64,000 bases of DNA from assembly GCA_963780045.1 (NCBI GenBank), contig CAVZZZ010000005.1, positions 743,255-807,254 on the forward strand, given 5' to 3'. Positions 2,836 to 51,402 of this stretch are shown here, piece after piece (positions within the stretch are counted from its first letter, which is position 1; each line of letters begins with the position of its first letter). The notes beneath the pieces are model-generated. The model searched no databases, was not told the DNA's origin, and was given only the letters and a program-made list of their open reading frames with translations. A program made the position numbers and the translations under genes. Origin of the DNA: an uncultured Planctomycetia bacterium (GTDB lineage Bacteria; Planctomycetota; Planctomycetia; Pirellulales; Thermoguttaceae).

Positions 2836-5350
2836 GCATCAAGCGGAAACGGCTGCCAAGAACGATTCCGAAGCAAAAAGGAAACAAATCACTCGCCAAT
2901 TGGCACTTTCGTTGATCGATCGCGGCGTCAACGAGATAGAATACGGCAACCGTCGGCGAGGATACGCGATTCTTGGACAAGCGCTTGCCCCCGCGAGCGA
3001 TTCTCCCGATCTCGATACGAGCGTTCGTTCGCTCTTCGGCGCATGGGATCTCAGCCTGCCGCGCATTCTGCAACATCAATACCCCGTAAATGCCGTGGCC
3101 TTCAGTCCCGACGGCGCAAAGATCGCCACCGCAAGTAGCAACATGACCGTGCGCCTTTGGGACGCCGCAACGGGCAAACTGTGCGGCGACCCAATCATGG
3201 GCGGCGGAAATGTCCTCGCGTTCAGCCTTGACGGCGCGAAGATCGCTACCGCGGACGACGAATTGGTGCAGCTCTGGGACGCGGCAACAGGCAAACCCCT
3301 CAGCGATGCGATCGACCACGACGACCTTGTCATTTGCCACGACGATATCGTGAATGCCGTGGCGTTCAGCCCCGACGGGACGAAGATCGCCACCGCAAGC
3401 CAGGACAAGACCGCGCGGCTTTGGGATGCCGCGACCGGCGAACCCCTCGGCGCGCCAATGAAGCACGCCGCGTCCGTGAACAGCGTAGCCTTCAGTCCCG
3501 ACGGGACAAAGCTTGCCACGGCAAGCGACGACCATTCGGCGCGGCTTTGGAACCTTTCGACGAACGAACCGCTCGGCGAGCCGATGAAGCACGCCGCCTC
3601 CCTTAACACCGTGGTCTTCAGTCCGGACGGGACGAAGCTTGCCACCGCGGGCGATGACAATACGGTGCGGCTTTGGAACGTGGCGACGAACAAACCGCTC
3701 GGTGAGCCGATGAAACACGCCGCTTCCGTTAACTGCGCGGTCTTCAGTCCGGACGGAACGAAGCTTGCCACCGCAAGCAATGACCATACCGCGCGGCTTT
3801 GGAACGCGGCGACGGGCAGGCCGCTTGGAGAGCCGATGAAGCACGAGGCCGAGGTGCGGTCCGCGGTCTTCGGACCGGACGGCACAAAGGTCGCCACGGC
3901 AAGCCTCGACGGGACGGCGCGGCTTTGGGACGCGGCCAGCGGCAAGCCGCTCGGCGCGCCATTTAAACACGACGATGGCGTACTTGCCGTGGCGTTCAGT
4001 CCCGACGGCAGCAAGATTGTCTCGGCAAGCAGCGACGGCACGGCGCGCATTTGGGATTCGGCGGCTGGCGGACCGATCGGCGTGCCGATGAGGCACGACA
4101 AGCCTGTGGAAGCGATGGCCTTCGGCCTCGATGGCGCCAAGATCGCCACGGCGAGCGGTGACGGTACGACGCGACTTTGGGACGCGGCAACTTGTAAACT
4201 GCTCAGCGAGCCGATGAAGCACAATGAGACGGTCTGTGCCCCGGCGTTCAGCAGCGAAGGGACGATGATCGTCACTGCAAGTTCCGACAGGACGGCGCGG
4301 ATTTGGGATGTGACAACGGGCAAACTGCTCCTCGCGCCGATCAAGCACGACAAACCTATACTCGCCGTGGCCTTTAGCCTCGACCGAAAAAAGTTTGCCA
4401 CCGCGAGCGGCTTTCGATGGACGGGCGAGAATACAACGCGGGTTTGGGACGTGGCGACGGGCAAATCGTTCGGCGCGCCAATCAAGTATGAAGACGTTGT
4501 GTTTGCCGTTGCCATGAGCCCCGACGGGATGACGAATGCCACCGCCAGCGCCAAGTTCAACACCGCGCGGCTTTGGAGCGTGGCGACGGGCAAATCGTTT
4601 GGCGAACCAATGAAGCACGATGGCCAAGTAAATTGCGTTAACTTCAGCCCCGACGGGACGAAGATCGCCACGGCAAGCAGTGATAAAACCGCGCGAATTT
4701 GGGACGCCACGACCGGCAAACCGCTGACCCAGCCAATGAAGCTCAACGCGGCGGTGCTCAGCGTGGTATTCAGCCCCGATGGGACCAAGATCGCGACGGC
4801 AAGCGGAGATTTGTCGGCCGACGGCAATGGCGAAGCAAGGCTTTGGGACGCAGTCACGGGCAAACCGCTCGGCGAGCCAATGAAGCATGACAGTCGCGTA
4901 TTGACGGTGGCCTTCAGCCCCGATCGGACGATTATGGCCGCCGGCGATCGCTCGGCTGCCCGCCTTTGGAACGTCGCGCGGCAACTTGGCGGCGATCCCA
5001 GGTGGATCGCCGCGTATATCACCGCGGTTTCGGGGTTGGCCGAAGACGCGGATCACGCTCTTCATCCGCTTTCGCTCGAAGCAACGGCGTCGAATTGGGC
5101 AGAAGTCATGAAGTCGCCTGAGTGGCTCGAATACCGCACGTTGATCCTGGACCGGAGCCGACTCGCCCTGCATGAAACCGACGCCGAACATTTCGAGACC
5201 GAAAAGAGCTGGTTCGCCGCGGCCTTCCACCTCAAGTGGCTCGCCGATAAAAGCCCGCACGACATGGACCTCCGCCGCCGTCTTTCCCGCGCGTACGCCG
5301 AGCAGGGCCTCAAGGAAAAAGCCGCCGCTGCGCTGGTTGAGCCGAAGTAA
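2735..5350 (+). CDS. WD40-repeat beta-propeller protein (15 recognisable blades) plus C-terminal helical domain; likely the sensor part of STK1
   Basis: There are 15 repeats of about 42 aa, of the type 'VNAVAFSPDGTKIATAS.DKTARLWDAATGKPLGEPMKH'. The N-terminal '[22 protein letters not shown]' is colinear with the post-TM coiled coil of paralogue STK2. That implies continuity with the kinase ORF upstream. Confidence 0.9.
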   Translation: MLGFPSAPCSWAAQAQTAKARDDALRAKDSAVAAHQAETAAKNDSEAKRKQITRQLALSLIDRGVNEIEYGNRRRGYAILGQALAPASDSPDLDTSVRSLFGAWDLSLPRILQHQYPVNAVAFSPDGAKIATASSNMTVRLWDAATGKLCGDPIMGGGNVLAFSLDGAKIATADDELVQLWDAATGKPLSDAIDHDDLVICHDDIVNAVAFSPDGTKIATASQDKTARLWDAATGEPLGAPMKHAASVNSVAFSPDGTKLATASDDHSARLWNLSTNEPLGEPMKHAASLNTVVFSPDGTKLATAGDDNTVRLWNVATNKPLGEPMKHAASVNCAVFSPDGTKLATASNDHTARLWNAATGRPLGEPMKHEAEVRSAVFGPDGTKVATASLDGTARLWDAASGKPLGAPFKHDDGVLAVAFSPDGSKIVSASSDGTARIWDSAAGGPIGVPMRHDKPVEAMAFGLDGAKIATASGDGTTRLWDAATCKLLSEPMKHNETVCAPAFSSEGTMIVTASSDRTARIWDVTTGKLLLAPIKHDKPILAVAFSLDRKKFATASGFRWTGENTTRVWDVATGKSFGAPIKYEDVVFAVAMSPDGMTNATASAKFNTARLWSVATGKSFGEPMKHDGQVNCVNFSPDGTKIATASSDKTARIWDATTGKPLTQPMKLNAAVLSVVFSPDGTKIATASGDLSADGNGEARLWDAVTGKPLGEPMKHDSRVLTVAFSPDRTIMAAGDRSAARLWNVARQLGGDPRWIAAYITAVSGLAEDADHALHPLSLEATASNWAEVMKSPEWLEYRTLILDRSRLALHETDAEHFETEKSWFAAAFHLKWLADKSPHDMDLRRRLSRAYAEQGLKEKAAAALVEPK

Positions 5351-5375
5351 TATCAATATATAAACGAGGCACACG

Positions 5376-7439
5376 GTGTCATCTCCCCAGCACAACTGCA
5401 ATCTGCTTTTCGGCGGTATGGCCTTGCAGACGGATTCCCCCGACGCGGAGGATTCCTTCGCTACGTGCTTGCAGCCGGTGGGCCTTTCCACTTCCGCCGG
5501 CCGATTTCGCGTTCTCCGTCCGCACGCCGAAGGCGGACTGGGCAAAGTCTCCGTCGCCCGCGACAAGGAACTGGGCCGCGAAGTGGCACTGAAAGAGATC
5601 AAAGAGCGTCTCGCCGACGACGCCAACAGCCGCGCGCGATTCCTTCTGGAGGCGGAAATAACCGGCGGACTGGAGCATCCGGGCATCGTGCCGGTCTACA
5701 GTCTTGGCCAGTACGCCGACGGCCGGCCCTACTATGCCATGCGCTTCATCCGCGGCGACAGCCTCCAAGAGGCGGCCGATCGCTACCACAAGGTAGCGGG
5801 CACGCTCCGCGTGCCGTCCGCTTCCGGCGAACGCGCTGTCGAACTCCGCAAACTGTTGCGCCGCTTTCTGGACGTCTGCAACGCGATCGCCTACGCGCAC
5901 AGCCGTGGCGTCTTGCACCGCGATTTGAAGCCGGCCAACATCATGCTCGGCCAATACGGCGAGACGCTCGTGGTCGACTGGGGACTGGCCAAGGCGACCG
6001 ACCGGCCGGAGTTGGCGGGCCAGTCGGGCGAAGTTCGGCTCAAGCCCGCGTCCACCAGCGGCAGCGCGCCGACGCAGATGGGCTCGGCCATCGGCACGCC
6101 GCAATACATGAGCCCCGAACAGGCCGCCGGTCGGCTCGATCTGCTCGGCCCGGCCAGCGATGTTTACAGTCTTGGCGCTACGCTCTACTACGTCCTCACC
6201 GGCCGGCCGCCCATTAAGGCTGAGGACATTGGCGCCGTCTTGAAGAAAGTGCAGACCGGCGACTTCGCCCCGCCGCGGTCGGCAAACCCCGAGATTGCTC
6301 GGCCGCTGGAGGCGATTTGTCTCAAGGCGATGGCCGTGAAGCCCGAGGACCGCTATGCGACGCCCAAGACCCTCGCGGAAGATATCGAGCGTTGGCTCGC
6401 CGACGAAACGGTCAACGCATATCCTGATCCGTTGCTGTCTCGCGTCGCTCGCGCGGCACGGCGGCACAAGGTGGCGACGGCAACGGTTGCGGCCCTGCTG
6501 ATCGCGGCGGTCGTTGGGCTTTCCGTCGGCGCCTTGCTGTTGGACCGCGAGCAGGCGCTGACGGCGAAGGCCCGCGACGCGGAAGAGTTCGCCAAGGATG
6601 CTGCTATTAAAGCCAAGGATTCCGCCGTGGCGGCCGAGAAACTGGCGGACGCCAACGCCGAGAAGGCCGAGGCGAATGCCAAGCGGGCCGAGGAAAGCGC
6701 CCAATCCGCGGAAGCGCAGGCCCGCCTCTCGCTGCAAGTAATCGACTCCGTGGTCTTCGACATCGAAGGTGGACTGGAAAACGTGCCCGGCGCGCTCGCC
6801 GTCCGTCGCAGACTCCTTAAAACGGCCGTCGACGGACTGAACCAGGTCGCCCGCTTCTCGGAAGGATCGGAAGTGGATCGCGGCACGGCGGTGGCCCTGG
6901 GAAGGACCGGCGACGTGCTTTTGCGCATGGGCGATTCGGAGAAAGACGCCGCTGCCACCGCGCGCCGGTTTTACGAACAGGCCCACGCCATTTTTCAGAA
7001 GTTGGCGGAAGCGCACCCCAACGATGCGCAGGCCCAGCGGGATTTGTCGATCTCGTGCGAGCGGCTCGGTGAAGTTATGGCGAAAACGGGTCAGACCGGC
7101 GCCGCGCTGAAATACTGTCAAGACGGCTTGGCGATCCGCAAGAAGCTGGCTCAGAACGATCCTCGCGATGACCAGGCCCAGCGGGATTTGGCGTTCGCGT
7201 ACAACGATCTTGGGAATCTCATGCTGCAAACGAATCAAATCGACGCCGCGCTGAAGTTTTACCAGCAGGCCTTGGCGGCCGTGGCGGAACTGGCGCGGAA
7301 AAACCCAAACAGCAGCCAGGTCCGCGACCAACTGAACCTGGTGAAGCGGCAGATCGTCCACTGCGAGGACCTGATGCGCCTCCGCGGCCTGCCCGAATTC
7401 CAAAAACCGTTGGACTCCGTCCCGCCGCCCAAACCTTAA
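5376..7439 (+). CDS. Hanks-type Ser/Thr protein kinase with TM helix, coiled coil and C-terminal TPR repeats (STK2)
   Basis: Carries '[11 protein letters not shown]', 'DWGLAK', '[10 protein letters not shown]' and TM '[19 protein letters not shown]'. The C-terminus has repeated 'AQRDL(S/A)..Y..LG' TPR-like units. The start is GTG, because the ATG of the paralogue is AGG here. Confidence 0.9.
5442..6632. repeat. direct repeat copy 2 of the kinase cassette
   Basis: See copy 1 (1646-2835). Confidence 0.8.
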
Positions 7440-39474: not shown

Positions 39475-42400
39475 TTAGGGAGCGGGCCTGCCCGCAACGT
39501 TCGACTGAGAATTGAGCTTTGACATGTCTAGTTGCCCGCCGAAAGGCCAGTCGCCGTCAGTCAGCGCATTCTGGTCTTGGCTGGGCCAAGCGGCCGCGTC
39601 GTCCCAAAAAAGCTCCACGGGCCGATGGGCGGCGACTTCGCCGTTAACGAGTGCAGCCAATTCGTCGTTCAGCTTCGGCGGCTTTCCTTTGGCAGTCTTA
39701 ACCTGATCGCGGGTCAGGCCCAATTCGAAGCGCTTGCCGGGCCGCCCGTCTTGCGGCAGGAATAGGGCGAAGTTGGCTTTTGGCGTGAAGCTGAAGATGA
39801 GGAGCGTCGCTTGGGAACTGGACGCAGCTTGGGGATGCGCCATCCGCGAGTCCAAAACGTAGTGCGCGATCTGAACGAGGTCGATCTTTGCTGGTTCCGC
39901 GGTGCAATATGCCTCGACGGCCAACTCGTAAAAGCGGCGGAGATACGGCCGCACGTCGCGGCGGCCCTGAAAGAGGGCCAAGAGCGCATCCAGATACTTC
40001 AGGTCCCGTCGGGCACTTTTCGGGTCCGCGGCCAAGTCTGAATTGACGAGCATCTCAGCGGCGAATAGGCACATCTCGACGACTTCTCGCCTGTCAGAAC
40101 CGCGAGCCGACGGGTTGAGCTTGAACTGATCGAGGAATGCCCGCAGCAGCGATCGTTCGTCCTTTGGCGCCGGTCCCGCGGCGAGCATCGCATCGGCCAA
40201 TTGCACCAACAGCCTGGCCCGCTGGTTTGGAGCGCCTATTTGCAGGGGGCCCGGCGCCGGCCGGAGCGCCGGGTCGACGGAATCGTTGTTCAGCCGGCGT
40301 ACAATTAGGAGTTTGCTGCCAAGCGCGCCGGCATGAACGGCATCGGCGGTCAAGAGGCGGCCCTGATTGTACCTGTCGGCCGCCTGCACAAGATTGACCT
40401 TGCCGCCGGAGGCCGCGCCGCCGTAAAGCTCACAATCGCCCCAGGCCTCCAAGGTGTTGGCGAGTTGATCGCGAAGGGCGTCGGGGCCGATTGGTGCGGC
40501 GGCAGCGCTTTGGTTGTGATCGGCTTTCTCGATAGCTGCGCGAAGTTCGCCGGCCAAGTTCTTGCAAGCCCGCCGTGTCGCGTCGACGTTGCCGCGGTAG
40601 CGATTGGCGACAGCCGAGCCGAGGCGATCGCGAAACACGTAAACTGCGGCCGAGGGGTCCTTTTCCTCTTGATTGGTCAGTCGGACGTGATACGCCGCCT
40701 GGAACTGCCGTATCGCCTCATCGACCTTCCATTGATCCAGAAGGCTCGCGGCGTAGTTCTCGGCGATGCAAGCCGCCAACGGATGAACCGGCTTGAGCGC
40801 CTGGCAGCCGTCCAGCAACTTTTTCGCATACACGAAGCGATAGTCTTCGAACTCGCCCGCACTAGCGGCCGATTCCGCGGCTAGCCGCCCGCGCTGGACC
40901 AATGCGCTGACGTGGAAAAGCGGCGGCAGGTCTTTTTCAGCAAGCAGTTCGTCTGAAACGTGCCTTTCGTTGATGATGTCGTCGCGAAGTTCCTCCGCGA
41001 AGACCGCCGAATCGAACAAGCAGAGCGGCTGCAGCCAGCTTTTGGCCTTGGGCTGCATGGCGTAGGCTTGCAGGGCCCGGAGGTAGCTCGACCTCGCCTT
41101 CGCGCTCATCGGCGCGAGGAGTTGACGCTCCTGGCGCGTGAGCTGCGGCGATACCTGAACTGCCGCGATTGCATGCTGCATCAGCGCGATCGTGTGCCGA
41201 TCGACAGCCGACACGTCATCGCCGGAATGTGCGTCCGCAAACTGCTGCAGCGCACTTTGAAGCGATTGGACCACGCGTTTGCCGTCGTCGTGATTCTCGT
41301 CCGAAAGCGCCTTGAGTTGGTCCATTAGCTTCTGTTGGCAAGGCGAGAGTTCAGCCCGGCAGCGCTGCGCGGCCTGCCAAAGCCATTGACGGGCTTTCAC
41401 CGTATTCGCGTTCAAATACGCTTGCGGGCGGTCGCCGAGCACAGCGCTCAAGTCCGGCGATGAAAGCACTTTATCGGCGATCGCCTGCCGCACGAAGGGA
41501 GTCAGCCAGGGCATTTCGTCGAACCACCAGCCGCCGTTCAGACCCGGCAGCAGCGCCAGATCAGCGGCCACGGCTTCCCGCGAAACCGCGCTCGTAGTGC
41601 CGCCTTTAGGCGGCTCCCCTAAATTCCGGCTGAAGCCGGTACTACGAGCGCTCGGCAGTCCGTGGCCATGCGGGCGGATCGCGCTCCACACCAACACGCT
41701 GCCGGCGACAGCCGTCAGACCGGCCGCAATGCCGATCGTCACGTTGCGGCGGAACTTCTGGCGGCTCGCCCAGCGGCTCGATCGGCGGCGCGGGTAACCG
41801 CTAGTGGGTGAGGATCCGGACGCGGAATCGCGCTGCGGCGGAGTAATCGCACCGGGGCCGTGAGCGCCGGTGTTCTCCGCGCCCACGCAGACGTCGTGCG
41901 GCGGCAGCGCGGCTGCGATTTCGGCCAACTCTTCCGCGTCGGCGAATTCGGCCACAGCTTCCGCGACTTCCGCCGGCGTGGAGTAGCGGTCCTCCGGCTT
42001 CTTGGCCAGCATTGCCTCATAGACCTCCTCCAATTCTTCCGGCACGTCGGCGCAGCTTTCGCGCAGCGGTGGAATCGCCGCGACGGCGTGGGCCATGAGC
42101 TTTTTGCGGCTACTGTCGTAGTCCGGCGCACCGTAAGGTGGCTTGCCCGTCAGAAGGAAGAACAGCGTGCAGCCGAGGCTGTAGATGTCGGCGCGGATGT
42201 CGGCAGCGGCGGAATTCTCCCATTGCTCCGGCGCCATGTAATCGACGGTGCCCATCGTGGCGCCGGGCAGTGTGAGGCGGTCGTCGCCGCGGCTTTCCGA
42301 GTGCAGCTTGGCCAACCCCAGGTCGAGGATTTTCACCTGGCCTTCGCGGGCAAGCATAAGATTGGCCGGCTTAATGTCGCGATGCACCAACTGATGTTCG

Positions 42401-43068
42401 TAGGCGTGTTGCAATCCCGCGGCTGCCTGGCGGACGATCTCGCATGCCGCGCCAATCCCCAAGAGTCCTCCCTGCGGCGGACCGACGCCGACGAAGCGCT
42501 GCAGGCTGATGCCGTCGACGTATTCCATCACCAGAAAATGGACGCCGCTTGCGCTGCCGGCATTGTACGCCCGCACGATGTTCGGGTGGCCGAGCGCGCC
42601 GATCGACTGCATCTCGCGGAGGAAGCGGTTGACGGCCTGCGGATCGTCGAGTCCGCGCCGCGGCAGGATTTTGACGGCCACGACCTGGTTGAGAAAGACC
42701 TGCCGGGCTTTGTAAACCGTGCCCATTCCGCCGCGGCCCAGCTCTTCCAGCAACTCGTAGTCTCCCAGACGGCGGGTTTTCACCACGCGGCGGAAGACGC
42801 TATCGACCAGCTCCGCCCGGTCGGGAAAACGAACGCGGTAGTCGTCCGCATCGACGAACGTTCCAGTCCGCTGGCGGCAGTCCAACTCGATTTCCAGCAG
42901 TTCGGCCAGCAGCCGGTCGCGCTCGCCCGGCGGGGCGCGGAGCAGGAATTCCTCGATAATCGCCGGGCGGCCGGCACGGCAGGCGCGCTCGAAGTCGTCG
43001 CACACCTCGTCAATATGCGTGGCGGGCGTTATAGGGGGCGGCGGTCCCTGGCTTCCGTGCTCGCTCAC
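39475..43068 (-). CDS. Hanks-type Ser/Thr protein kinase with TM helix and ~760-aa uncharacterised C-terminal domain
   Basis: 'GRGGMGTVYKA', 'HRDIKPANLML', 'DLGLAK', 'GTVDYMAPEQ'. TM helix 'VTIGIAAGLTAVAGSVLVWSAI'. I recognise no domain in the remainder. Confidence 0.9.
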   Translation of the reverse strand: MSEHGSQGPPPPITPATHIDEVCDDFERACRAGRPAIIEEFLLRAPPGERDRLLAELLEIELDCRQRTGTFVDADDYRVRFPDRAELVDSVFRRVVKTRRLGDYELLEELGRGGMGTVYKARQVFLNQVVAVKILPRRGLDDPQAVNRFLREMQSIGALGHPNIVRAYNAGSASGVHFLVMEYVDGISLQRFVGVGPPQGGLLGIGAACEIVRQAAAGLQHAYEHQLVHRDIKPANLMLAREGQVKILDLGLAKLHSESRGDDRLTLPGATMGTVDYMAPEQWENSAAADIRADIYSLGCTLFFLLTGKPPYGAPDYDSSRKKLMAHAVAAIPPLRESCADVPEELEEVYEAMLAKKPEDRYSTPAEVAEAVAEFADAEELAEIAAALPPHDVCVGAENTGAHGPGAITPPQRDSASGSSPTSGYPRRRSSRWASRQKFRRNVTIGIAAGLTAVAGSVLVWSAIRPHGHGLPSARSTGFSRNLGEPPKGGTTSAVSREAVAADLALLPGLNGGWWFDEMPWLTPFVRQAIADKVLSSPDLSAVLGDRPQAYLNANTVKARQWLWQAAQRCRAELSPCQQKLMDQLKALSDENHDDGKRVVQSLQSALQQFADAHSGDDVSAVDRHTIALMQHAIAAVQVSPQLTRQERQLLAPMSAKARSSYLRALQAYAMQPKAKSWLQPLCLFDSAVFAEELRDDIINERHVSDELLAEKDLPPLFHVSALVQRGRLAAESAASAGEFEDYRFVYAKKLLDGCQALKPVHPLAACIAENYAASLLDQWKVDEAIRQFQAAYHVRLTNQEEKDPSAAVYVFRDRLGSAVANRYRGNVDATRRACKNLAGELRAAIEKADHNQSAAAAPIGPDALRDQLANTLEAWGDCELYGGAASGGKVNLVQAADRYNQGRLLTADAVHAGALGSKLLIVRRLNNDSVDPALRPAPGPLQIGAPNQRARLLVQLADAMLAAGPAPKDERSLLRAFLDQFKLNPSARGSDRREVVEMCLFAAEMLVNSDLAADPKSARRDLKYLDALLALFQGRRDVRPYLRRFYELAVEAYCTAEPAKIDLVQIAHYVLDSRMAHPQAASSSQATLLIFSFTPKANFALFLPQDGRPGKRFELGLTRDQVKTAKGKPPKLNDELAALVNGEVAAHRPVELFWDDAAAWPSQDQNALTDGDWPFGGQLDMSKLNSQSNVAGRPAP

Positions 43069-43266
43069 TGCGGGGCTTTCTCGGGGTCGCGGATACGTAA
43101 GGATATGGTATCCGTTGCGCCGGGTTGTCGAGAATCGGCAAGACCGGGGATTCCCACTGGGTAGACGAGAAGTTCCAATAATTGACGGGTTTCCGGCCGT
43201 CTGCTACGGTCGCGAGTATATCAGAGCGACAGCGTTTGAATTACAATGGAAGGAAGGAGAACAACA

Positions 43267-43518
43267 ATGGTATCAGCCAAAACGAGGTCGATTGTTGACC
43301 GTGCCAAGCAGCTATACGCCAGCCAACTCAAGGCGGACCTTGAGTCCCGTCATATGGATCGCTTCGTGGCGATTGAGCCGGAATCCGGCGAGTATTTCCT
43401 CGGCGACACGTTCGATGAAGCGGTGACTAACGCCAGGACGAAGTATCCGACGCGCGTGTCCCACACGATCCGAGTCGGCCATCGCGCGGCATTCCACATC
43501 GGAGTGACCGAACTGTGA
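43267..43518 (+). CDS. small protein of unknown function, partner of the retropepsin-like protease
   Basis: ATG 43267 is preceded by 'GGAAGGAAGGAGA'. The stop overlaps the next start (GTGA). The track ORF begins at 43246. Confidence 0.6.
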   Translation: MVSAKTRSIVDRAKQLYASQLKADLESRHMDRFVAIEPESGEYFLGDTFDEAVTNARTKYPTRVSHTIRVGHRAAFHIGVTEL

Positions 43519-43877
43519 ACGGATACGTCGACGACCGTCTGCGAGCATTGCTGCACGTCCAAGTTTCTGCCACAGGCGGAGGCGCGCGAACGACGCTGGC
43601 CGTTTGGGTCGACACGGCCTTCAACGGCGCAATGGCCATACCGCGAAAGCAGATCGCTGAGTTAGGTCTTGTGGAGGAGTCGACTGCGGAGGCCGTATTG
43701 GCCGACGGTAATATGGTCGAGTTGGAAACTTTCGCCTGCCACTTTGATTGGTTCGGCAAATCGTACAGGACTCAGGTCGTTGCCAAGGAAGGAGAGTATC
43801 CTCTGCTCGGAACAATGCTCCTGGATGGGCGCCATTTGGACATTGACTACAAGGCGAAAACGGTACGACTTACATAA
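43515..43877 (+). CDS. retropepsin-like clan AA aspartic protease (AF_0612/TIGR03698-like)
   Basis: 120 aa. 'LAVWVDTAFNGAMAIP' matches the 'hhhDTGF.G.L.LP' active-site flap, with DTA instead of DTG. 'LLGTMLLDGRHLDIDY' matches the family C-terminus. Confidence 0.55.
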   Translation: MNGYVDDRLRALLHVQVSATGGGARTTLAVWVDTAFNGAMAIPRKQIAELGLVEESTAEAVLADGNMVELETFACHFDWFGKSYRTQVVAKEGEYPLLGTMLLDGRHLDIDYKAKTVRLT

Positions 43878-44037
43878 TGATATGACGCCAAGTCGCCTTG
43901 AACTAGGCGGTTACATCGTTGAATTTGATCGTGGCTCTACGATTGCGTTTGGCGGTTCAGCGGTTTGCGAGCTGCACTTTTTTACTGAAAGCGCCCGATT
44001 TCGCACCAAACGCAAGCGCGCAAGCCCCCTCCCCATA

Positions 44038-47031
44038 ATGTTCGCGTACTTCGCCGATTTGCACCGCCGACATTTGCTGTTGACCGTCACCGTCGGGGCC
44101 TGTCTGTTGGCTTATGTTAGCGGCGCGGTGCGGACGGTCTACGATTTTGATCTGGCGATGCTGCTGGCGCTCGTCGGCGGGTATCCGACCTATGCCGGCG
44201 CCCTCTCCGGCCTGATGCACCGCAAAATCACCGCCGACCTGGCCGTGGCCCTGGCGGCAATGGCCGCGCTCTGGATGGGCTGGCACGCACAGGACCCGTC
44301 GCCCTGGTTCCTCGTCGCGGCCGAAGTCATCTTCATCATGCTTGTCGGCGAGGCGCTGGAAAACGTGGCCATCGGCCGCACGCGATCGGGCATCGCGGCC
44401 CTACTGACCCTGCGGCCGCACACCGCCCGCGTCCGCCGCGGCGAGCACGAACACGAAATCCACGTGCCTGAGGTGCGGCCGGACGACATCGTCATCGTCC
44501 GACCCGGCGATCGCTTGCCAGTCGATGGCCGCGTCCTCCGCGGCGCGTCGTGGATCGATCAAAGCCCGATCACGGGCGAGTCGGCGCCGGTAGAGAAGAA
44601 GGCGGGCGACGAGGTCTTCGCGGGCACGCTGAACACCATCGGCGCGCTGGAATTGGCGATCGAGCGCCTGGGGCACGACACGACGCTCGAACGGATCATC
44701 CATCTCGTTGAGCACGCCGAGGAATCGAAGGCTCCGGTGGAGCGGCTGGCAGACCGATACGCGGGCTACTTTGTTCCCGCGGTGCTGATCGCGGCCGGAA
44801 TCACTCTCTGGTTCACGCGCGACGTGTCGCGGAGCGTGGCCGTGCTCGTCGTGGCCTGCCCGTGCGCGCTCGTGCTTGCCACGCCGACCGCGGTCGCCGC
44901 GGGGATCGGCTTTCTCGTTCGCCACGGCATCCTCGTCAAGGGCGGCGCGGTAATCGAAAACCTCGGCCGCTTGAAGACCGTCGTGTTCGACAAGACGGGC
45001 ACGCTCACCCTTGCCCGGCTCCGCATCGAACGGATTGAGACAACGGCCGGCTTTACGGAAGCCGCGGCCATCAGGTTGGCAGCCGCGGTCGAGCAGAGTT
45101 CCGAACATCCGATCGCGCGACTGATCGTTGACCGCGCCCGGCAAGACGGCATCGCAATTCCAGCCGCGGAGCGATTTCTTTCTCAACCGGGGCTGGGCGC
45201 GGAGGCGGAAGTTGACGGGCGAACTGTGCGGCGTGGGCAGCCCGCGGGCCGCGGAGTTGGCGGGCGTGCGAATCCCCGACGATTTGCGCGGCCGTATCGA
45301 AGCGATGCAGGCCGACGGCAGCACGATCGTCGTCGTCGCCGCCAACGAGACGGCAGTAGCCGCCATCGGCATTCAAGATACGATCCGGCCCGAGGCTTTC
45401 GACGCGATTCACGAGTTAAAACACCTGGGCGTTTCGCGAATTGTCATGCTCACCGGCGATCACGAGGCGGCCGCGCACGCCGTCGCCGCCAAACTCAAAA
45501 TCGGCGAATTCCACAGCGGACTGTTACCGACGGAAAAAGCCGAGTGGCTCAAGAAGCTCCGCGACCAACGCGCAGGCGCGGCAGGCTGCGCCGGTGGCCA
45601 TGGTCGGCGACGGCGTGAACGACGCCCCGGCGCTCGTCTCGGCCGATATCGGAGTGGCCCTGGCCGATATCGGCAGCGACGTGACCGTCGAATCAGCAGG
45701 GCTGGTGCTCATCGGCGACGATCTGCTGAAGCTGCCCGAAGCGATTGCTTGCGGACGCCGCGTGCTGCAAACCATCCGCCAGAACATCATCGGCTTCGCC
45801 ATCGTCTTCAATCTGGTTTGCGTGGCGGCGGCCTCCAGCGGCTGGATTTCGCCCGTAACCGCGGCCGTGCTGCACCAGGTCAGCTCGCTGACGGTCGTGT
45901 TGAATTCCCTACGGCTGTTGATTGACTTCCACGCCTGGCAGCACCGCGTCGGCGACGCATGGTATGAAATCAAGCGCCGCCGCCGAAAGCTGCTCGCCGC
46001 GACAGCCGTGATCGTCGCGGCCGGCTACTTGCTTAGCGGAGTGCATTCGATCGGCGTCGGCGAATTGGGCGTCGTGCAGCGGTTCGGTCGCCGGGTGTTG
46101 CCGCTTGAGCAGCCCGGCCTGCACTATCGTCTTCCCCGGCCATTTGCCCAGCATGCCGATCATTCGTCCCGATGAATATCGCCGCATCGAGATCGGCTTT
46201 CGCAGCGCTCCGGGCGAATCGCAGGAGCCGGCCGCCTATGAATGGAACCTCCAGCATCGCGGCGGGCGGTACGTGGCGCGGGCCGACGAGTCGTACGTCT
46301 GGACCGGCGACGAGAACCTGATGGACGTCAACTGGATCGTGCATTACCGCGTGACCGATCCGGAGGCGGCCGTTTTCTCCGTCGGCATCGGCGAGGGCGA
46401 AGGTGAATCGAAGTGGGACCAGTTGGTGCGGGCGGCGGCCGAGACTGCTTTCCGCACGGAAATGGCCCACCGCGAGGCCGACGACTTGTTCACTTCGGCG
46501 CGGCAGGAAATTGCGGCGGACGTCGTCCGCCGGACCAATGCGCTGTTGGTCGGATACGGCGCGGGCCTGGAAGCGGCGGAGGTATGTTTCGGCGACATTC
46601 ATCCGCCACTGGAGGTCGTGCCCGCCTTTCGCGACGTTTCCAGCTCGCTGGAGGAGAAAGAGGCGGCGATCAACGAGGCCCAGGCATATCAGGTGCAAAC
46701 GGAAGCCGCCGCGCGCGGGCAGGCCGCCGAGCGGATTGCGGCGGCGGAAGGTTTCGCGGCCGAGCGGACGCAGCGCGCGGCGGGCGCGACCGAGCGGTTT
46801 TTGGCCGTCGCCGCGGCAGTGGCCGAGTCGCCCGGCGTGGCGCGGATGCGGCTTTATTTGCAAACGGTGGAAACGGCGCTGGCGGGCCGCCGCAAGGTGA
46901 TCCTTGACGCCGGCCACTTGGGCCGCCGCGCCTTGTACCTTGGCCGCAGAACGCTCGACGCGGCGCAACTGCCCGCGCCGGCCGTTCTCGATGCACCGTT
47001 CGACAGCTCCAACAAACCAACCACACCATGA
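44038..47031 (+). pseudogene. P1B-type (CPC) heavy-metal P-type ATPase without N-terminal metal-binding domain, fused in frame to an HflK-like SPFH protein (three frame breaks as given)
   Basis: ATPase motifs: 'TGESAPV', 'ACPCALVLATP', 'DKTGTLT', 'SEHPIA', 'MLTGD', 'GDGVNDAPAL', 'VVLNSLRLL'. They are spread over track ORFs 43669..45618, 45128..45925 and 45441..46175. The last ORF runs without a stop or Met into 'KRRRRKLLAATAVIVAAGYLLSGVHSIGVGELGVVQRFGR..PGLHYRLP'. ORF 46105..47031 then gives the SPFH body and coiled coil ('NLMDVNWIVHYRV', 'EVVPAFRDV', 'AINEAQAY'). The breaks are near 45225-45240, 45565-45590 and 46110-46150. Confidence 0.75.
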
Positions 47032-47910
47032 AGAAGTCGCTGCTTGTTTTCCTGGCCGTCGTAATTGCCGTCGTCGCCTGGCGGTGCCTGTTGTTTGTCG
47101 ACGAGACACAGTACGTCATCGTGACGCAATTCGGCCGTCCGGTGGCGACGCTCAGCGAGGCCGGGCTCTATTTCAAGCCGCCCTACCAGTCCGCGCTGGC
47201 CATCGACCGGCGGATGCAGATTTACAACCCCCGTCCGTCCGAATTCCTCACGAGCGAAAAGAAGAACGTCGACCTGGATGTTTACGTCCTCTGGTCGGTC
47301 GAGGACCCGCAGAAGTTCATTGAAACGGTCAACGACGCGGCCGGGGCCGGATCGCGGATTCACGACGTCGTCTGGTCGAAGCTGGCCGCGGCCGTGGGCC
47401 GCAATCCGCTGGAGAGCCTCGTCTCGATCGACTCCAAGAGCCACGGCCTGGAGCCGCTCGTTCAAAAGGTTGAGACCGAATGCGCGAACGAAGTTCATGA
47501 CAAGTACGGCATCCGCATCGTCGACGTGCGGATCAAGCGGATCGGGCTGCCGGAACAGGTCCGCGAAAGCGTTTTCGACCGGCATGCGCAAGGAACGCGC
47601 CCGCATCGCGCAGCGCTACCGCTCCGAAGGCGCCGAAGAGGCGACGAAAATCCGCGCGGCGGCCGACAAGGAGCGGGCGGTGCTCCTGGCGGCGGCGAAC
47701 GCCAAGGCCGAGATCATTCGCGGGCAGGCCGAGGCCGAGGCGACGCGGACCTACAGCAAGGCCCATCAGAAGGACCCGTCGTTTTTCGAGCTGACGCGGA
47801 CGCTTGAGGCCTACAAGAAGTTCCTCGACGAAAAGACTACCATCCTGCTCTCGGGCGATTCGGAGCTGCTGAAGTACCTTCGCGGGCCGGGCGAAGGAGG
47901 AAAGAAGTAG
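47028..47910 (+). pseudogene. HflC-like SPFH/band-7 protein (one frame break near 47583 as given)
   Basis: An ATGA overlap joins it to the preceding gene. TM 'LLVFLAVVIAVVAW', then 'YVIVTQFGRPV', 'GLYFKPPYQS' and 'GIRIVDVRIKRIGLPEQV'. The sequence continues in ORF 47278..47910 ('RKERARIAQRYRSEGAEEA'). The break sits at 'gaccGGcatgcgc' (extra G). Confidence 0.8.
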
Positions 47911-47913
47911 ACC

Positions 47914-48906
47914 ATGCATCGTCGCGCCACACCCGACCACCATCATCACGATCACCATCATCCGCACGTCCACGGCGGACCGGAGTGGCGGCGCGTGCTT
48001 GCTTTCCTCGCACTGGCGGCGCTCGTCGCGTGGGCCGTGTCCGGCATTTACATGGTGGGGCCGAACGAGCGGGCCGTCGTATGGCGATTCGGCCGCATCC
48101 TGCCGGAAACGCGGCCGCCGGGGCTGCACGCGGGACTGCCCTATGGCTTGGACCGCGTGACGCGGGTGAAGATGTACGAGCAGAAGAGGGTCGGGATCGG
48201 CCTCGGCCTGGAAGACCGCAACCTGGGTCGCACGGCCCAGCCAAGCCGCGCGGAATGCCTGGCGGGCGACCGGAACCTGATCGAGGTCTCCGCCGTCGTG
48301 CAATACGAGATCGTCGACGCGAGGAGCTTTCTCGCCCGCTCGGCCGAAGTCTCCGCGACGATCGAGAACATGGCCACGGCCGAGCTGTCGTCGCAAATCG
48401 CCTCGCGCGCGGTGGACGACATCTTTACGACCGGCCGCGCGGAGATCCAGCAGAATGTCTTGGCGGCGCTACGGGACCGGCTCGCGCATTTGCAGCGCGA
48501 CGGCCGGGGGATCGGCGTGCAGGTAAACTCCGTGACTTTGGAGGCGGTGGCGCCGCCGCAGGAGGTCGCGCCGGCCTTTCGCGACGTGGTGGCCGCCCGC
48601 GAAGACCGGCAGCGGGCGGTGAACGAGGCGCAAGGGTACGCGGCCGCCTTGTTCCCGTCGGCCCGCGGCGAGGCGGAGCGGATTCGCCTCGACGCCGAAG
48701 GCGCCGCGGCCGAAACCACCGAAAAAGCACGCGGCGAGGCCGACCGCTTCGACCGCATGTTGGCCCAATTGACCGCCGGGCGGCAGCTCACCCTCCGCCG
48801 CCTGGTCCTGGAAGCGATGGAGGAAGTCTTGCCGCGCATGAAGAAGATCATAGTCGATGAACAATCGGATAAACCGGTTGATTTGGGGGTAATCGACGAT
48901 CAATGA
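47914..48906 (+). CDS. HflK-like SPFH/band-7 protein with His-rich cytoplasmic N-terminal tail
   Basis: 'MHRRATPDHHHHDHHHPHVH', then TM 'VLAFLALAALVAWAVSGIY', 'ERAVVWRFGR', 'PPQEVAPAFRDVVAARED' and 'VNEAQGY'. It starts 3 nt after the HflC-like stop. Confidence 0.85.
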   Translation: MHRRATPDHHHHDHHHPHVHGGPEWRRVLAFLALAALVAWAVSGIYMVGPNERAVVWRFGRILPETRPPGLHAGLPYGLDRVTRVKMYEQKRVGIGLGLEDRNLGRTAQPSRAECLAGDRNLIEVSAVVQYEIVDARSFLARSAEVSATIENMATAELSSQIASRAVDDIFTTGRAEIQQNVLAALRDRLAHLQRDGRGIGVQVNSVTLEAVAPPQEVAPAFRDVVAAREDRQRAVNEAQGYAAALFPSARGEAERIRLDAEGAAAETTEKARGEADRFDRMLAQLTAGRQLTLRRLVLEAMEEVLPRMKKIIVDEQSDKPVDLGVIDDQ

Positions 48907-49063
48907 CGACAAGATAGTCCTAGGTATTGACAGAAACATGATTGACATAAGAATGATCTTTCTGTCAGTCATTTTTCTGTCGAGTAATGGGCGTGCGTAT
49001 CCGATCGATTATTCGTGTGATTCGTGGTTCTGAAAGGTGTTCGTGGTGGTTTTGTCAAGGCGT

Positions 49064-49573
49064 ATGCTTGTGCCGATCTTGCTCGCGGTTTGCCTTGCCG
49101 CGGTGGCGATCGCGCTGCGAGGCAAGGGCCGGCTGCCGGAGACTCCCGAGGCCGCGGTGCGGGCGTTCTTTGCCGCGGCCGAGCAGGGCGACGCCGCGGC
49201 CTATCTTTCGCTCGTCGCCGGAACGTTGAAAAGTTCCTTCCAAGAGACGCAGTCGCAGCTCGGCAGCGCGGCGTTCCGCGACAGTCTGCGCAATTCGGCA
49301 GCCGGCCTGAAGGGTTTTGCCGTTAGCCGTTCCGGCGATTCCGCCGACGAGTCGGCCGCAAAGCGCGCCGCGCTGGACGTCGAGCTTGTCTTTGCCGACC
49401 GCACGGAACGGCAGCGATTTGCACTGGTTCGCGACGGCCGCGGCTGGGCGATCGAATCAATCGACCGCGCGGAGGTCGAAAAGCCGGCGATGCCTTACGG
49501 GGCTACCGTCTACGACATTCAGCCATCGGTCGAAGCCGATGCGGAACCGCCGCCCAGCGCGACGCAGAAATAA
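49064..49573 (+). CDS. membrane-anchored hypothetical protein
   Basis: TM anchor 'MLVPILLAVCLAAVAIAL' and a ~150-aa soluble part with no recognisable motif. The track ORF starts at GTG 49037. Confidence 0.5.
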   Translation: MLVPILLAVCLAAVAIALRGKGRLPETPEAAVRAFFAAAEQGDAAAYLSLVAGTLKSSFQETQSQLGSAAFRDSLRNSAAGLKGFAVSRSGDSADESAAKRAALDVELVFADRTERQRFALVRDGRGWAIESIDRAEVEKPAMPYGATVYDIQPSVEADAEPPPSATQK

Positions 49574-49778
49574 ACGTAGCGGTTGGCGGACCGCGCTTGG
49601 ATGATCGAGTCCCGCAGGCGTTGCCAGCCCACCTTCGCGGGCTTGACACGCCAGTTCTTCCGACTAGACTGGCTCTTGATGAACAAATGACACTTCCTGT
49701 CAGTCAGCTCCCATCAGTCAGATTCGATTGCTTTCTTGCATTGGAGCCGGTGTCGCCGGCTATGAACCGGAGAATCAC

Positions 49779-51402
49779 ATGCTGTCCGTAGTCGCCGCAC
49801 TTCTGGTCATATTTGCCGCGGCCCCGGCCGAAAAAACGGCTGCGGATACTTCCTTCGATACGGTCGTCGTCTGCCCGGCCGCCTTTCACGAAGCGATGAA
49901 GCCCTGGCTCGAATTGCGTGCCGGGCAAGGGCGTCGCGTCAAGCTGATATCGAACCGCGGCTCGGCCGAGGAGATTCGCGACGAGATTCGCAAAACGGCC
50001 GGCGGCGGACGGCTCCGCTTTGTCCTCCTGGTCGGCGGGGCGGACCCGAGGATGAATAACGACGCGGGAGTGCGCGCCCGGAGCGTGCCGATGCATTACG
50101 CCGCCGCGCGGATCAACGTGAAATGGGGGTCCACGCCCACGATCCCGACCGACAATTGGTACGTCCAAGCGGCAGGCGCCGATGACGCAAGCCCGCTGCC
50201 CGCGATCGCCATCGGCCGCTTGCCGGCGACGTCGCCGGAAGAGTTGGCGGTGATGGTCAAGAAGATCGTGGACTACGAGCGCGGAGGACTTCAGTTCCTG
50301 GCGACAGCGGTTGAACATCGTCGCCGGGGTGGGCAACTTCGGTTACGTGGCCGATACGCTCCTGGAAGCGACGGCGACGTCGATCCTGACGGAGAGCGTT
50401 CCGGCCGAGTACCGCGTCTCGATGACTTATGCCAACTGGCGCAGCCCGTACTGCCCTGACCCGCGGCGGTTCCATGCGGCGGCGATCGAGCGGTTGGACG
50501 AGGGTTCGCTACTTTGGGTCTATATTGGCCACGCCGCGCCGTGGGAAACGGCACGGTTCGAAGTGCCCGGCCACAAGTATCCGATCCTGAACATGCCCGA
50601 CGCGGCGGCGCTCCGCGGAGGTCAAGGGCGGCCGATCGCCTTGTTCCTTTCCTGTCTGGCCGGCGCGTTGGACGCCCGCGGCCAATGCCTGGCCAGCGCC
50701 CTCGCGGCAGCGCCGGGCGGGCCGATCGCGGTCGTGGCCGCCAGCCGTGTCACCATGCCCTACGGAGAGACCCTCTTGGCAACGAACTTCAGCGACGAAT
50801 TGTTCCGCGGGCAGCGGGAAACGCTGGGCGAGGCGTTGCAGGACGTCAAGCGGAAGATGCTCGCGGCGCCGAAGAAGGACGACGCCCGGCGGGCCGTGCT
50901 CGACGCCCTGGCCGCTGCCTTCGTTACTTCCGGCAAGAATCAGGCGGCCGAGAGGGCCGAGCACGTCTTGATGTACAATCTCATCGGCGATCCGCTTTTG
51001 CGCCTGCGGCGTCCTCAGCCGGTCAACATTCAGCTTGCCAAGCGCGCCGCAGCCGGCGGCATCCTGCAAATCGACGGCCTTTCGCCGATCGCCGGGCGGG
51101 CAACCGTGGAGCTTGTCGTCCGCCGCGACCGGACCCGCCGCCCGCGACCGGTGCGCAAGTCTTATCCGGCAGACGCCAAGGAACTGGCCGCCTTTGACGA
51201 GGTCTACAAAGAAGCGAACGACCCTTGCCTGAAGTCCGTGCAACTGGCGGTTGAGAAAGGGCCTTTCCAGGCAAAATTCGCCGTTCCGCGCACGGCGATT
51301 GGGACCTGCGCCGTCACGGTATTGATAGGCGGCAAGGGCGAGCTTGCCACGGGCTCGGCCCCGGTAGAGATTGTGCGGGCGATCTCGTCCATCCGCCAGT
51401 AG
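49779..51402 (+). pseudogene. peptidase C25 (gingipain)-like cysteine protease family protein (one frame break near 50285-50300 as given)
   Basis: Signal/anchor 'MLSVVAALLVIFAAAP'. 'FVLLVGGAD', 'IPTDNWY' and 'IGRLPATSPEELAVMVKKIVDYE'. Candidate catalytic His is in 'WVYIGHAAPW' and candidate Cys in 'IALFLSCLAGAL'. Confidence 0.5.

Follow-up and report, generated by a model that had tools for sequence, protein, structure and literature searches.

In a 64,000-nucleotide (nt) stretch of a contig from an uncultured Planctomycetia bacterium (GenBank assembly GCA_963780045.1, contig CAVZZZ010000005.1; hereafter the window), a gene starting at ATG 44038 encodes a P1B-type metal-efflux ATPase fused to an HflK-like SPFH protein, K1. 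Genes for an HflC-like protein, for a second, unfused HflK-like protein, K2, and for a small membrane-anchored protein, gene 4, follow it. The ATPase-K1 fusion is real and ancient, and the K1-HflC-K2 trio is conserved over several phyla. Proteins of the K1 or HflK type were found fused to three unrelated exporter classes, namely P1B ATPases, cation diffusion facilitators (CDFs) with an H-D/H-D site and SO_0444-family Cu/Zn permeases. One scaffold type on three unrelated exporter families provides a Rosetta-stone argument for a functional unit of SPFH proteins and metal efflux. As the best explanation we favour, with somewhat better than even confidence, an HflK/C-type ring or cage that would have a divalent-metal exporter as its built-in client.

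Metal exporters fused to an HflK-like protein

The junction of the two proteins lies in a single unbroken open reading frame (ORF), 45441..46175. In this frame the last ATPase helix, M6 ('VVLNSLRLL'), runs into the linker IDFHAWQHRVGDAWYEIKRRRRK, then into a transmembrane (TM) helix and the first SPFH strands, ending in GVVQRFGRRVLPLEQPGLHYRLP. Both the ORF listing and direct reading bore out the fusion described in the original prediction, an earlier reading of this DNA from its sequence alone, and because the junction is inside an unbroken ORF the fusion needs no sequence repair to be seen. Over the whole plus-strand gene the reading frame shifts by +1 three times, as determined from the ORF listing and direct reading, and the frames were merged by eye, with orthologues as a guide, into a product of 995-997 residues. 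The merged product matched the Pfam families E1-E2_ATPase (residues 125-295), Hydrolase (313-535) and Band_7 (669-881). A protein search of 5.8 billion sequences was performed and the best 120 matches were examined. All 120 were intact proteins, most of about 990 residues, with 53-85% identity mostly over the full query length, and all carried the same three Pfam domains. Where a name was given, it was 'cation-translocating P-type ATPase family protein' or 'Cu+-exporting ATPase'; at least 120 intact fusion proteins are thus already in public databases under generic annotation.

The spacing from NSLRLL to PGLH was exactly 64 residues in 102 of 109 proteins, which marks the junction as structurally constrained and not a floppy tether. 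In an AlphaFold2 (AF2) model of the orthologue P0001 (predicted local distance difference test score, pLDDT, 76.6), M6 was followed in order by a linker helix (residues 625-641), a TM helix (643-660), the SPFH strands and a 73-residue coiled-coil helix, the linker and TM helices being modelled with a pLDDT of about 81-86. An alternative had been that the ATPase ends at the stop at 46175 and that a truncated SPFH protein starts from an ATG at 46152/46153. An ATG does stand at 46153 in the downstream frame, and gene callers split the gene near here on a related assembly. However, two intact loci, L006 (JGI metagenome contig, syntenic with the window and 83% identical to it in nt) and L001 (from a 2-Mb contig of a metagenome-assembled genome, MAG), have one base fewer here and read straight through, and two separate genes would cut the SPFH fold just past its first strands. 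Together with the 120 intact fusion proteins and the invariant junction spacing, these orthologues contradict the two-gene reading, which we regard as extremely improbable. A frameshift or gene-calling artefact as the source of the fusion was likewise rejected on the intact orthologues and the single frame of the window junction. K1 hits of 640-800 residues, considered as new architectures, were shown by Pfam to be ATPase fusions truncated N-terminally by contig ends.

The order fusion, HflC-like protein (about 300-320 residues), K2 (about 320-340 residues) and unannotated gene of 161-177 residues was observed in the neighbourhoods of five homologues, the closest being P0001 in L006, and the order fusion-HflC-K2-gene 4 was present in L001-L006. 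A profile of the junction and K1 region was then run against GTDB genomes, one for each species, and the components were mapped by tblastn. The scan yielded 67 distinct loci with an ATPase-type operon, carried by Planctomycetota, Verrucomicrobiota, Armatimonadota (Fervidibacter), Acidobacteriota, Gemmatimonadota, 'Zipacnadia' and Lentisphaeria. Of the ATPase-type loci, 56 had enough sequence to be judged, and 51 of these, in at least five phyla, had HflC and K2 downstream. The search of relatives proposed with the original prediction found both the fusion and the ATPase-hflK-hflC order to be conserved. In the window, the fusion gene is followed by the HflC-like gene, which has one further +1 step, and then by the unbroken K2 gene. 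The predicted ATGA overlap between K1 and hflC was found at 47028-47031, with the K1 stop TGA (47029-47031) overlapping the hflC ATG, and direct reading also confirmed the 3-nt spacer between hflC and the K2 start at ATG 47914. The overlap and the short spacer indicate translational coupling, and it is fairly probable that the region is a co-translated module of four genes: the ATPase-K1 fusion, the HflC-like protein, K2 and the membrane-anchored NTF2-like protein (Table 1).

Fifteen loci of the same scan had no ATPase; these belonged to Eisenbacteria, Zixibacteria, Gemmatimonadota, Nitrospiraceae, Tritonobacter and unclassified lineages. In all 15, K1 formed the C-terminal half of a protein of 568-632 residues whose N-terminal half was a CDF. 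The CDF-K1 fusions matched Pfam Cation_efflux (E about 1e-25) together with Band_7, and had no match to the CDF cytoplasmic domain. The CDF part carries 'ADAxHSxSD' in TM2 and 'ADGxHSRMD' in TM5, that is, HxxxD in each and an H-D/H-D site A, a pattern which we take to mark Zn/Co/Cd-type CDFs. HflC and K2 followed CDF-K1 in 14 of 14 loci, and gene 4 was found in none of these 14 compared to 41 of the 51 ATPase-type loci with enough sequence. The CDF-K1 architecture is found in at least 110 database clusters, all annotated as HflK; the label used by NCBI and JGI is 'FtsH protease activity modulator HflK'. The K1 parts of the ATPase and CDF types were 38% identical, ATPase-type K1 and K2 were 32-34% identical, and HflC was 48% identical between the two operon types, so that the trio is orthologous and the transporter was swapped. 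The 15 loci were also candidates for unfused K1 trios representing an ancestral state, which was rejected when ORF inspection showed CDF-K1 fusions in all of them. In one CDF-type locus (L084, 3520-6141), genes for a Fur-like regulator and FeoA/FeoB-like proteins, assigned by eye from N-terminal sequences, lie directly upstream of the fusion.

An exhaustive HMMER search with the K1 part of the window as query revealed a third architecture, in which a Cu/Zn efflux permease of the SO_0444 family (NF033936, 324-350 bits; cut-off 300) is joined to an HflK part (representatives P0381, P0410 and P0422). This HflK part is more distant from K1 than is the CDF-fused K1. The gene for P0422 (locus L088) is directly downstream of znuA-znuC-znuB (Pfam-annotated, 2916-5832) and an HflC-like ORF comes next.

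Table 1. Positions of the operon's parts and genes in the window
Feature	Coordinates	Strand	Basis
P1B-type metal-efflux ATPase part of the fusion gene	44038..45920	+	Pfam, NCBIfam, PDB match, motifs, AF2 model of orthologue P0001
Junction: basic cytoplasmic linker helix IDFHAWQHRVGDAWYEIKRRRRK and single TM helix LLAATAVIVAAGYLLSGV of the HflK-like part	45921..46043	+	
K1: HflK-like SPFH domain, long coiled coil and C-terminal strands; predicted periplasmic	46044..47031	+	Band_7, TIGR01933, 7vhp, AF2
HflC-like gene	47028..47910	+	TIGR01932, L006 HflC, indel mapping
K2: second HflK-like gene, unfused and unbroken	47914..48906	+	TIGR01933
Gene 4: 169-residue protein, N-terminal membrane anchor and NTF2-like domain	49064..49573	+	AF2, Foldseek

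The pump, the SPFH trio and the His-rich segments

The fusion product scored 562 bits on the NCBIfam model TIGR01525, 'heavy metal translocating P-type ATPase' (cut-off 346). The CPC, DKTGT, SEHP and GDGVNDAP motifs read earlier were confirmed, ITGES was also present, and the P1B-defining motifs were invariant in 44-120 homologues. The score and the invariant catalytic motifs speak against the possibility, raised with the original prediction, that profile analysis would show an ATPase-like part without transport signature residues. As had also been read, no HMA domain was matched. Eight TM helices were predicted, MA, MB with a GG kink and M1-M6, with CPC in M4 and 'HQVSS...N' in M6; the M4 sequence VVACPCALVLATP and the GG kink motif of MB were invariant. 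In the P0001 model, eight long helices flank the A and P/N domains. The best match among solved structures was the P1B-4 ATPase sCoaT (7qbz, 356 bits), followed by CopA (341) and ZntA (331).

The signature residues of M4, M5 and M6 were compared with those of the defined P1B subgroups, as had been suggested. In the Arguello classification, P1B-1 (Cu+) ATPases have CPC in M4, N(x)6YN(x)4P in M5, M(x)2SS(x)5N in M6 and N-terminal HMA domains. The window ATPase keeps CPC and SS(x)5N, but Tyr is replaced by Phe and Met by His, the M5 spacing is off by one residue and there is no HMA domain. P1B-2 (Zn/Cd/Pb) ATPases have CPC in M4, an invariant Lys in M5 and DxG in M6. ZntA has the pair K693-D714 (PMC8880997); the window protein has no Lys in M5 ('QNIIGFAIVFN') and no Asp in M6 ('LHQVSSL'), and scored 379 bits on the ZntA model NF033775 (cut-off 1240). 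The P1B-4 signature is SPC in M4 and HEGxT in M6 (PMC8880997). Here M4 has CPC and M6 has HQVSS, with the His alone in common, although the overall similarity is closest to this subgroup. Like the P1B-4 ATPases sCoaT, CtpD, PfeT and CzcP, the protein has no classical heavy-metal-binding domain (HMBD), has MA and MB with a GG kink and carries an invariant His at the M6 position equivalent to H657 (PMC8880997). In contrast to these ATPases, it has CPC in place of SPC, HQ(V/I)(S/G)S in place of HEGxT in M6, an M5 Asn at the position of the Cu-type 'YN' motif and a C-terminus that runs into an SPFH protein. Assignment to P1B-1, P1B-2 or P1B-4 was rejected because each fails on at least one defining motif, and the signature fits no defined P1B subgroup. 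In M6, H(x)2SS(x)5N is similar to the Cu(I) motif M(x)2SS(x)5N, a His standing where that motif has Met. By its sequence, the family appears to define a P1B subgroup with CPC and HQxSS and without an HMBD. The exchange with CDFs, the znuABC neighbour and the His-rich segments point to a divalent metal of the Zn/Co/Ni/Cd/Fe class as the most likely substrate.

K1 matched Band_7 with E=2.9e-16 and aligned to residues 83-344 of E. coli HflK (7vhp), over a span that takes in the TM helix and reaches the end of the coiled coils. The CDF-fused K1 of P0122 scored 222.6 bits on the hflK model TIGR01933. K1 has a specific insert of about 33 residues that E. coli HflK lacks. This insert is predicted to be periplasmic (P0001 residues about 716-753; window about 46230-46340) and was modelled with a pLDDT of 35-40. 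It carries YEWNxQHRGGR, and the broader pattern Y[EQ]W[NE]xxH[RV]xG[RK][YF] is kept in ATPase-fused and CDF-fused K1. The window HflC, read in two frames, was 87% identical to the intact HflC of L006, and after frame repair scored 208.3 bits on TIGR01932 (cut-off 134.4). K2 scored 192.7 bits on TIGR01933, over the cut-off of 159.4, was about 30% identical to K1 and grouped with the K2 proteins of other loci.

Direct reading confirmed the His-rich cytoplasmic N-terminal tail of K2, DHHHHDHHHPHVH (about 47935-47973). The original prediction supposed that this tail may be supplied in trans as a metal sensor or donor. In favour of this proposal, His-rich K2 tails (6-21 His) recur independently in ATPase-type operons of three phyla, Planctomycetota, Acidobacteriota and Verrucomicrobiota, and tend to alternate with a His-rich insert in the ATPase; against it, most K2 orthologues have no such tail, so that the tail is not a defining feature. 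The ATPase insert, with up to 21 His, lies in the cytoplasmic loop just before the A-domain in 18 of 96 fusion proteins, and the window has a short His-containing stretch, RRGEHEHEIHVP, in this loop. In the few loci concerned, long ATPase His inserts pair with His-poor K2 tails and His-rich K2 tails pair with short ATPase loops. This small sample fits a metal-binding segment that may be supplied either in cis, by the ATPase loop, or in trans, by the K2 tail, on the same cytoplasmic face.

Frame breaks in the window copy and the operon's surroundings

Frame breaks were located by aligning the window DNA to the intact loci L006 and L001; a frame plot of GC content at third codon positions missed known breaks and was not used for counting. 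Four window-specific, frame-disrupting insertions were counted relative to these loci, one more than the three indels reported earlier. They are 1 nt at 45230 and 16 nt at about 45566-45581, both in the ATPase part, 1 nt at 46156-46159 in K1, to which the frame switch earlier placed at 46105 was mapped instead, and 1 nt at 47581-47583 inside hflC. Two of the four, at 46156-46159 and at 47582 in hflC, abut GCATGC, of which there are 14 sites in the 64 kb. The assembly of a close relative, L087 (ENA ERZ25039465), is 98.75% nt-identical to the window and has only the 45230 break in common with it. Its version of the second insertion is an in-frame one of 12 nt, the third and fourth are missing, and it has indels of its own at 44798, 46774 and 47608. 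It also has CAG changed to TAG at the equivalent of window position about 46147, 9 nt upstream of the +1 insertion of the window, and the two near-identical assemblies hence carry two different lesions at the same K1 spot. About 10 codons differed between the window and L087 in a comparison of nonsynonymous and synonymous substitution rates (dN/dS), too few to inform on decay. Programmed frameshifting was rejected, as none of the four +1 sites is kept in L006 or L001 and the sites differ even in L087. Elsewhere in the window, a Peptidase_C25 (gingipain-family) gene at 49728-51402 is read as two ORFs through a +1 frame break near 50300-50460, and the frame changes mid-gene in a TPR-repeat gene at about 52510 on the minus strand (orthologous to L006 18930-21698) and in a Ser/Thr kinase paralogue at about 1816-1831 on the plus strand.

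Were the breaks real mutations, the operon of this organism would be a pseudogene copy of a family that is functional elsewhere. Four frame-disrupting insertions inside 2.4 kb, the 45230 break and the TAG codon in L087, and the unbroken state of the adjoining 3.6-kb gene for a 1197-residue kinase (39475-43068) speak for this reading. However, three of the four indels are missing or different in L087, which has others, and further genes of the window are broken too. The contigs of the nearest relatives carry MFD isolate names and contig_N names, which we take as a sign of long-read Nanopore MAGs, and breaks abutting the rare GCATGC fit a motif-linked base-calling error. The breaks aside, the protein is 85% identical to intact orthologues and keeps every motif. 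Since they are absent from the orthologous loci, differ in L087 and have counterparts in other window genes, the four breaks are probably Nanopore assembly noise, and a pseudogene is improbable.

The leader 5' of the ATPase gene (43940-44018) contains a 13-nt inverted repeat (CGATTGCGTTTGG / CCAAACGCAAGCG) around a terminator-like hairpin with a T-run at 43960-43975, and this repeat has no Rfam match. A metal riboswitch or other RNA leader was rejected, as Rfam at E<=1 over 43200-49800 gave nothing meaningful. Upstream of the operon, at 43246-43877, two small overlapping ORFs of 90 and 120 residues are conserved and syntenic in L006 (84% and 65% identity); they have no Pfam match, and more distant loci do not have them beside the operon. 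Between K2 and gene 4, an AT-rich element (48927-48985) has two overlapping inverted repeats with 22-nt arms that are 86% complementary, and includes a sigma-70-like TTGACA-16-AAGAAT. L006 lacks it and has a K2-gene 4 gap of 16 nt. The element could be an internal promoter, an operator or a small insertion.

Gene 4 is identical to the database protein P0241 and has 38 homologues, none with a Pfam match; gene 4 itself matched SnoaL_3 only weakly (E=0.004). Its AF2 model (pLDDT 79) consists of a TM anchor and an NTF2-like cone, a cone-shaped alpha+beta domain, and Foldseek matched NTF2-like folds. Similarity to the efflux-pump-binding lipoprotein YbjP was weak (TM-score about 0.43) and was not taken as evidence. 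In two CDF-type operons (L069, 9997-10434; L067, 10051-10443), the gene 4 position is held by a CxxC...CxxC (zinc-ribbon-like) protein of about 130-145 residues. The ATPase-type operon is flanked in 19 related loci, which belong to several phyla, by the gene for a signal-peptide protein of about 900-1100 residues with a BNR/Reg_prop-type propeller and DUF3604, a domain of unknown function (L006 15768-18707; L016, L028, L032, L034, L037, L038, L047, L048, L064 and others); this gene is absent from the window. The PADLOC anti-phage models gave no match for the fusion, HflC, K2 or gene 4, and a role in anti-phage defence was rejected.

A proposed scaffolded exporter among known systems and rival readings

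The operon was compared with known systems of similar parts. It has several features in common with the E. coli HflK/HflC-FtsH complex (7vhp, 7wi3): K1 and K2 align to HflK over the TM helix, SPFH1/2 and the coiled coils, the HflC-like protein scores above the cut-off of the curated HflC model, an HflK-type gene precedes an HflC-type gene with translational coupling, and the predicted topology is alike, with a cytoplasmic N-terminus and a periplasmic body. In contrast to E. coli, the client is a covalently attached metal exporter rather than the FtsH protease, HflK is present as two paralogues (one loaded, one free) instead of a single protein, the neighbourhood has no ftsH or hflX, and K1 has the extra periplasmic insert and scores under the HflK cut-off. 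Physical coupling of an SPFH scaffold to an ion-transport protein that it modulates is known for stomatin and ASIC, MEC-2 and MEC-4, and podocin and TRPC6. Unlike the present case, these involve another SPFH subfamily, the cytoplasmic face, non-covalent contacts and channels rather than metal pumps.

Organisation of P1B efflux ATPases by operon-encoded single-pass membrane scaffolds has been described in the 'effluxosomes' of M. tuberculosis, in which CtpC, CtpG and CtpV are associated with the scaffolds PacL1-3 (PMC9374683, PMC13043812, PMC13460109). PacL scaffolds carry metal-binding motifs and stabilise the pump, and the shared concept is a membrane efflux platform. These SPFH-independent effluxosomes are the closest functional analogue. 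PacL proteins, however, are small, of the DUF1490 type and bound non-covalently, whereas here an HflK/C-type SPFH trio is attached by gene fusion, and PacL platforms are reported to be independent of the flotillin-like protein (PMC9374683, PMC13043812). No PacL-type protein was found in the operon, whose accessories are SPFH (Band_7) and NTF2-like proteins, and the His tail of K2 is N-terminal and on an SPFH protein. In a full-text literature search, which included a paper on prokaryotic SPFH evolution, no account was found of a P-type ATPase or CDF that is fused to an SPFH, HflK or Band 7 protein or shares an operon with one. The kinds of component are already known; what looks new, judged from the sequences, is their combination, an SPFH system of the HflK/C type that has a metal exporter built in as its client.

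The periplasmic cage of E. coli is assembled from 12 HflK-HflC heterodimers and covers a patch of membrane in which four FtsH hexamers lie (PMC12005517). If the present proteins assemble as their E. coli homologues do, K1 and K2 would take the HflK positions, alternating with HflC in a ring or cage on the periplasmic face, and each K1 would bring one exporter at a fixed distance from the ring. K2 may fill those HflK positions that are sterically unable to carry a pump, since twelve P1B pumps with their cytoplasmic heads would, by a rough size estimate of our own, exceed the area enclosed by a ring of the E. coli size. Clustering, stabilising or gating of the exporter by the scaffold would make an 'efflux platform', and the His-rich cytoplasmic segments of the K2 tail or the ATPase loop may bind or sense metal. 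For the SPFH assembly around a metal pump that was originally predicted, the conserved fusion and trio and the CDF and SO_0444 fusions speak in favour, while the cage geometry is reasoned from homology. Several findings weigh against our explanation. K1 scored 147.8 bits on TIGR01933, under its 159.4 cut-off, and the M4/M5/M6 signature of the pump fits none of the defined P1B subgroups. K2 and/or HflC are missing from the surroundings of five ATPase-type loci, and the cis/trans pattern of His-rich segments comes from few loci. The window copy has four breaks and L087 a TAG in the same gene, so that the copy of this strain could be decaying. Finally, the placing of K1, HflC and K2 in a ring or cage, and of the pump within it, is something we infer.

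K2 and HflC could also be ordinary modulators of FtsH, a Zn metalloprotease, with the fused pump sitting in or beside an FtsH-HflKC cage and its turnover or insertion controlled by FtsH. Both K2 (192.7 bits) and HflC (208 bits) exceed the cut-offs of the curated NCBI equivalog models for HflK and HflC, the CDF fusions bear the name of an FtsH modulator in NCBI and JGI, and the E. coli cage does enclose FtsH hexamers (PMC12005517). This reading is nevertheless unlikely, because the K1-HflC-K2 trio travels with three exporter classes and not with ftsH or hflX; an FtsH-like signature (Walker A and HExGH) was not found within about 7 kb in 86 loci, although ftsH need not be linked. Somewhat less likely again is a metallation or sequestration chamber, in which exporters inside the ring would fill a closed periplasmic vault of K1, HflC and K2 with metal, either loading metalloenzymes or holding toxic metal. 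All three transporter classes export toward the side of the SPFH dome, and the K1 insert, with its invariant Trp and His, is common to the ATPase and CDF types; the adjoining propeller-DUF3604 protein of about 1000 residues in 19 loci and the membrane-anchored, NTF2-like gene 4 product also count in its favour. The DUF3604 gene, however, is missing from the window and most loci, the K1 insert was modelled with very low confidence, and twelve pumps would overfill the ring as estimated above. Beyond the built-in exporter client that we favour, a bolder extension is doubtful, if a little less so than either of these rivals. In it, HflK/C-type cages with a dedicated, covalent and interchangeable exporter client would be widespread though so far unrecognised, metal would be discharged into a periplasmic vault or the exporters gated by it, and the second HflK paralogue would tune the number of pumps per cage.

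The roles and clients of bacterial SPFH assemblies (HflK/C, flotillin and stomatin) are a long-standing question and, FtsH aside, clients have mostly been inferred from weak phenotypes. A natural gene fusion identifies an SPFH client directly, and the same scaffold paralogue on three unrelated exporter classes makes a functional link between SPFH proteins and metal efflux hard to dismiss. With their fixed ratio of K1 to pump and their rigid junction, the fusions are attractive subjects for cryo-electron microscopy and for learning whether a transporter is gated, stabilised or compartmentalised by an SPFH ring. For annotation, hundreds of such proteins carry only the names 'cation-translocating P-type ATPase family protein' or 'FtsH protease activity modulator HflK'. 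For metal homeostasis, the system would be an 'efflux platform' of a second kind, alongside but independent of the PacL effluxosomes of mycobacteria, and, if the extension to a periplasmic vault were true, bacteria would have a membrane-bounded nano-compartment for metal handling.

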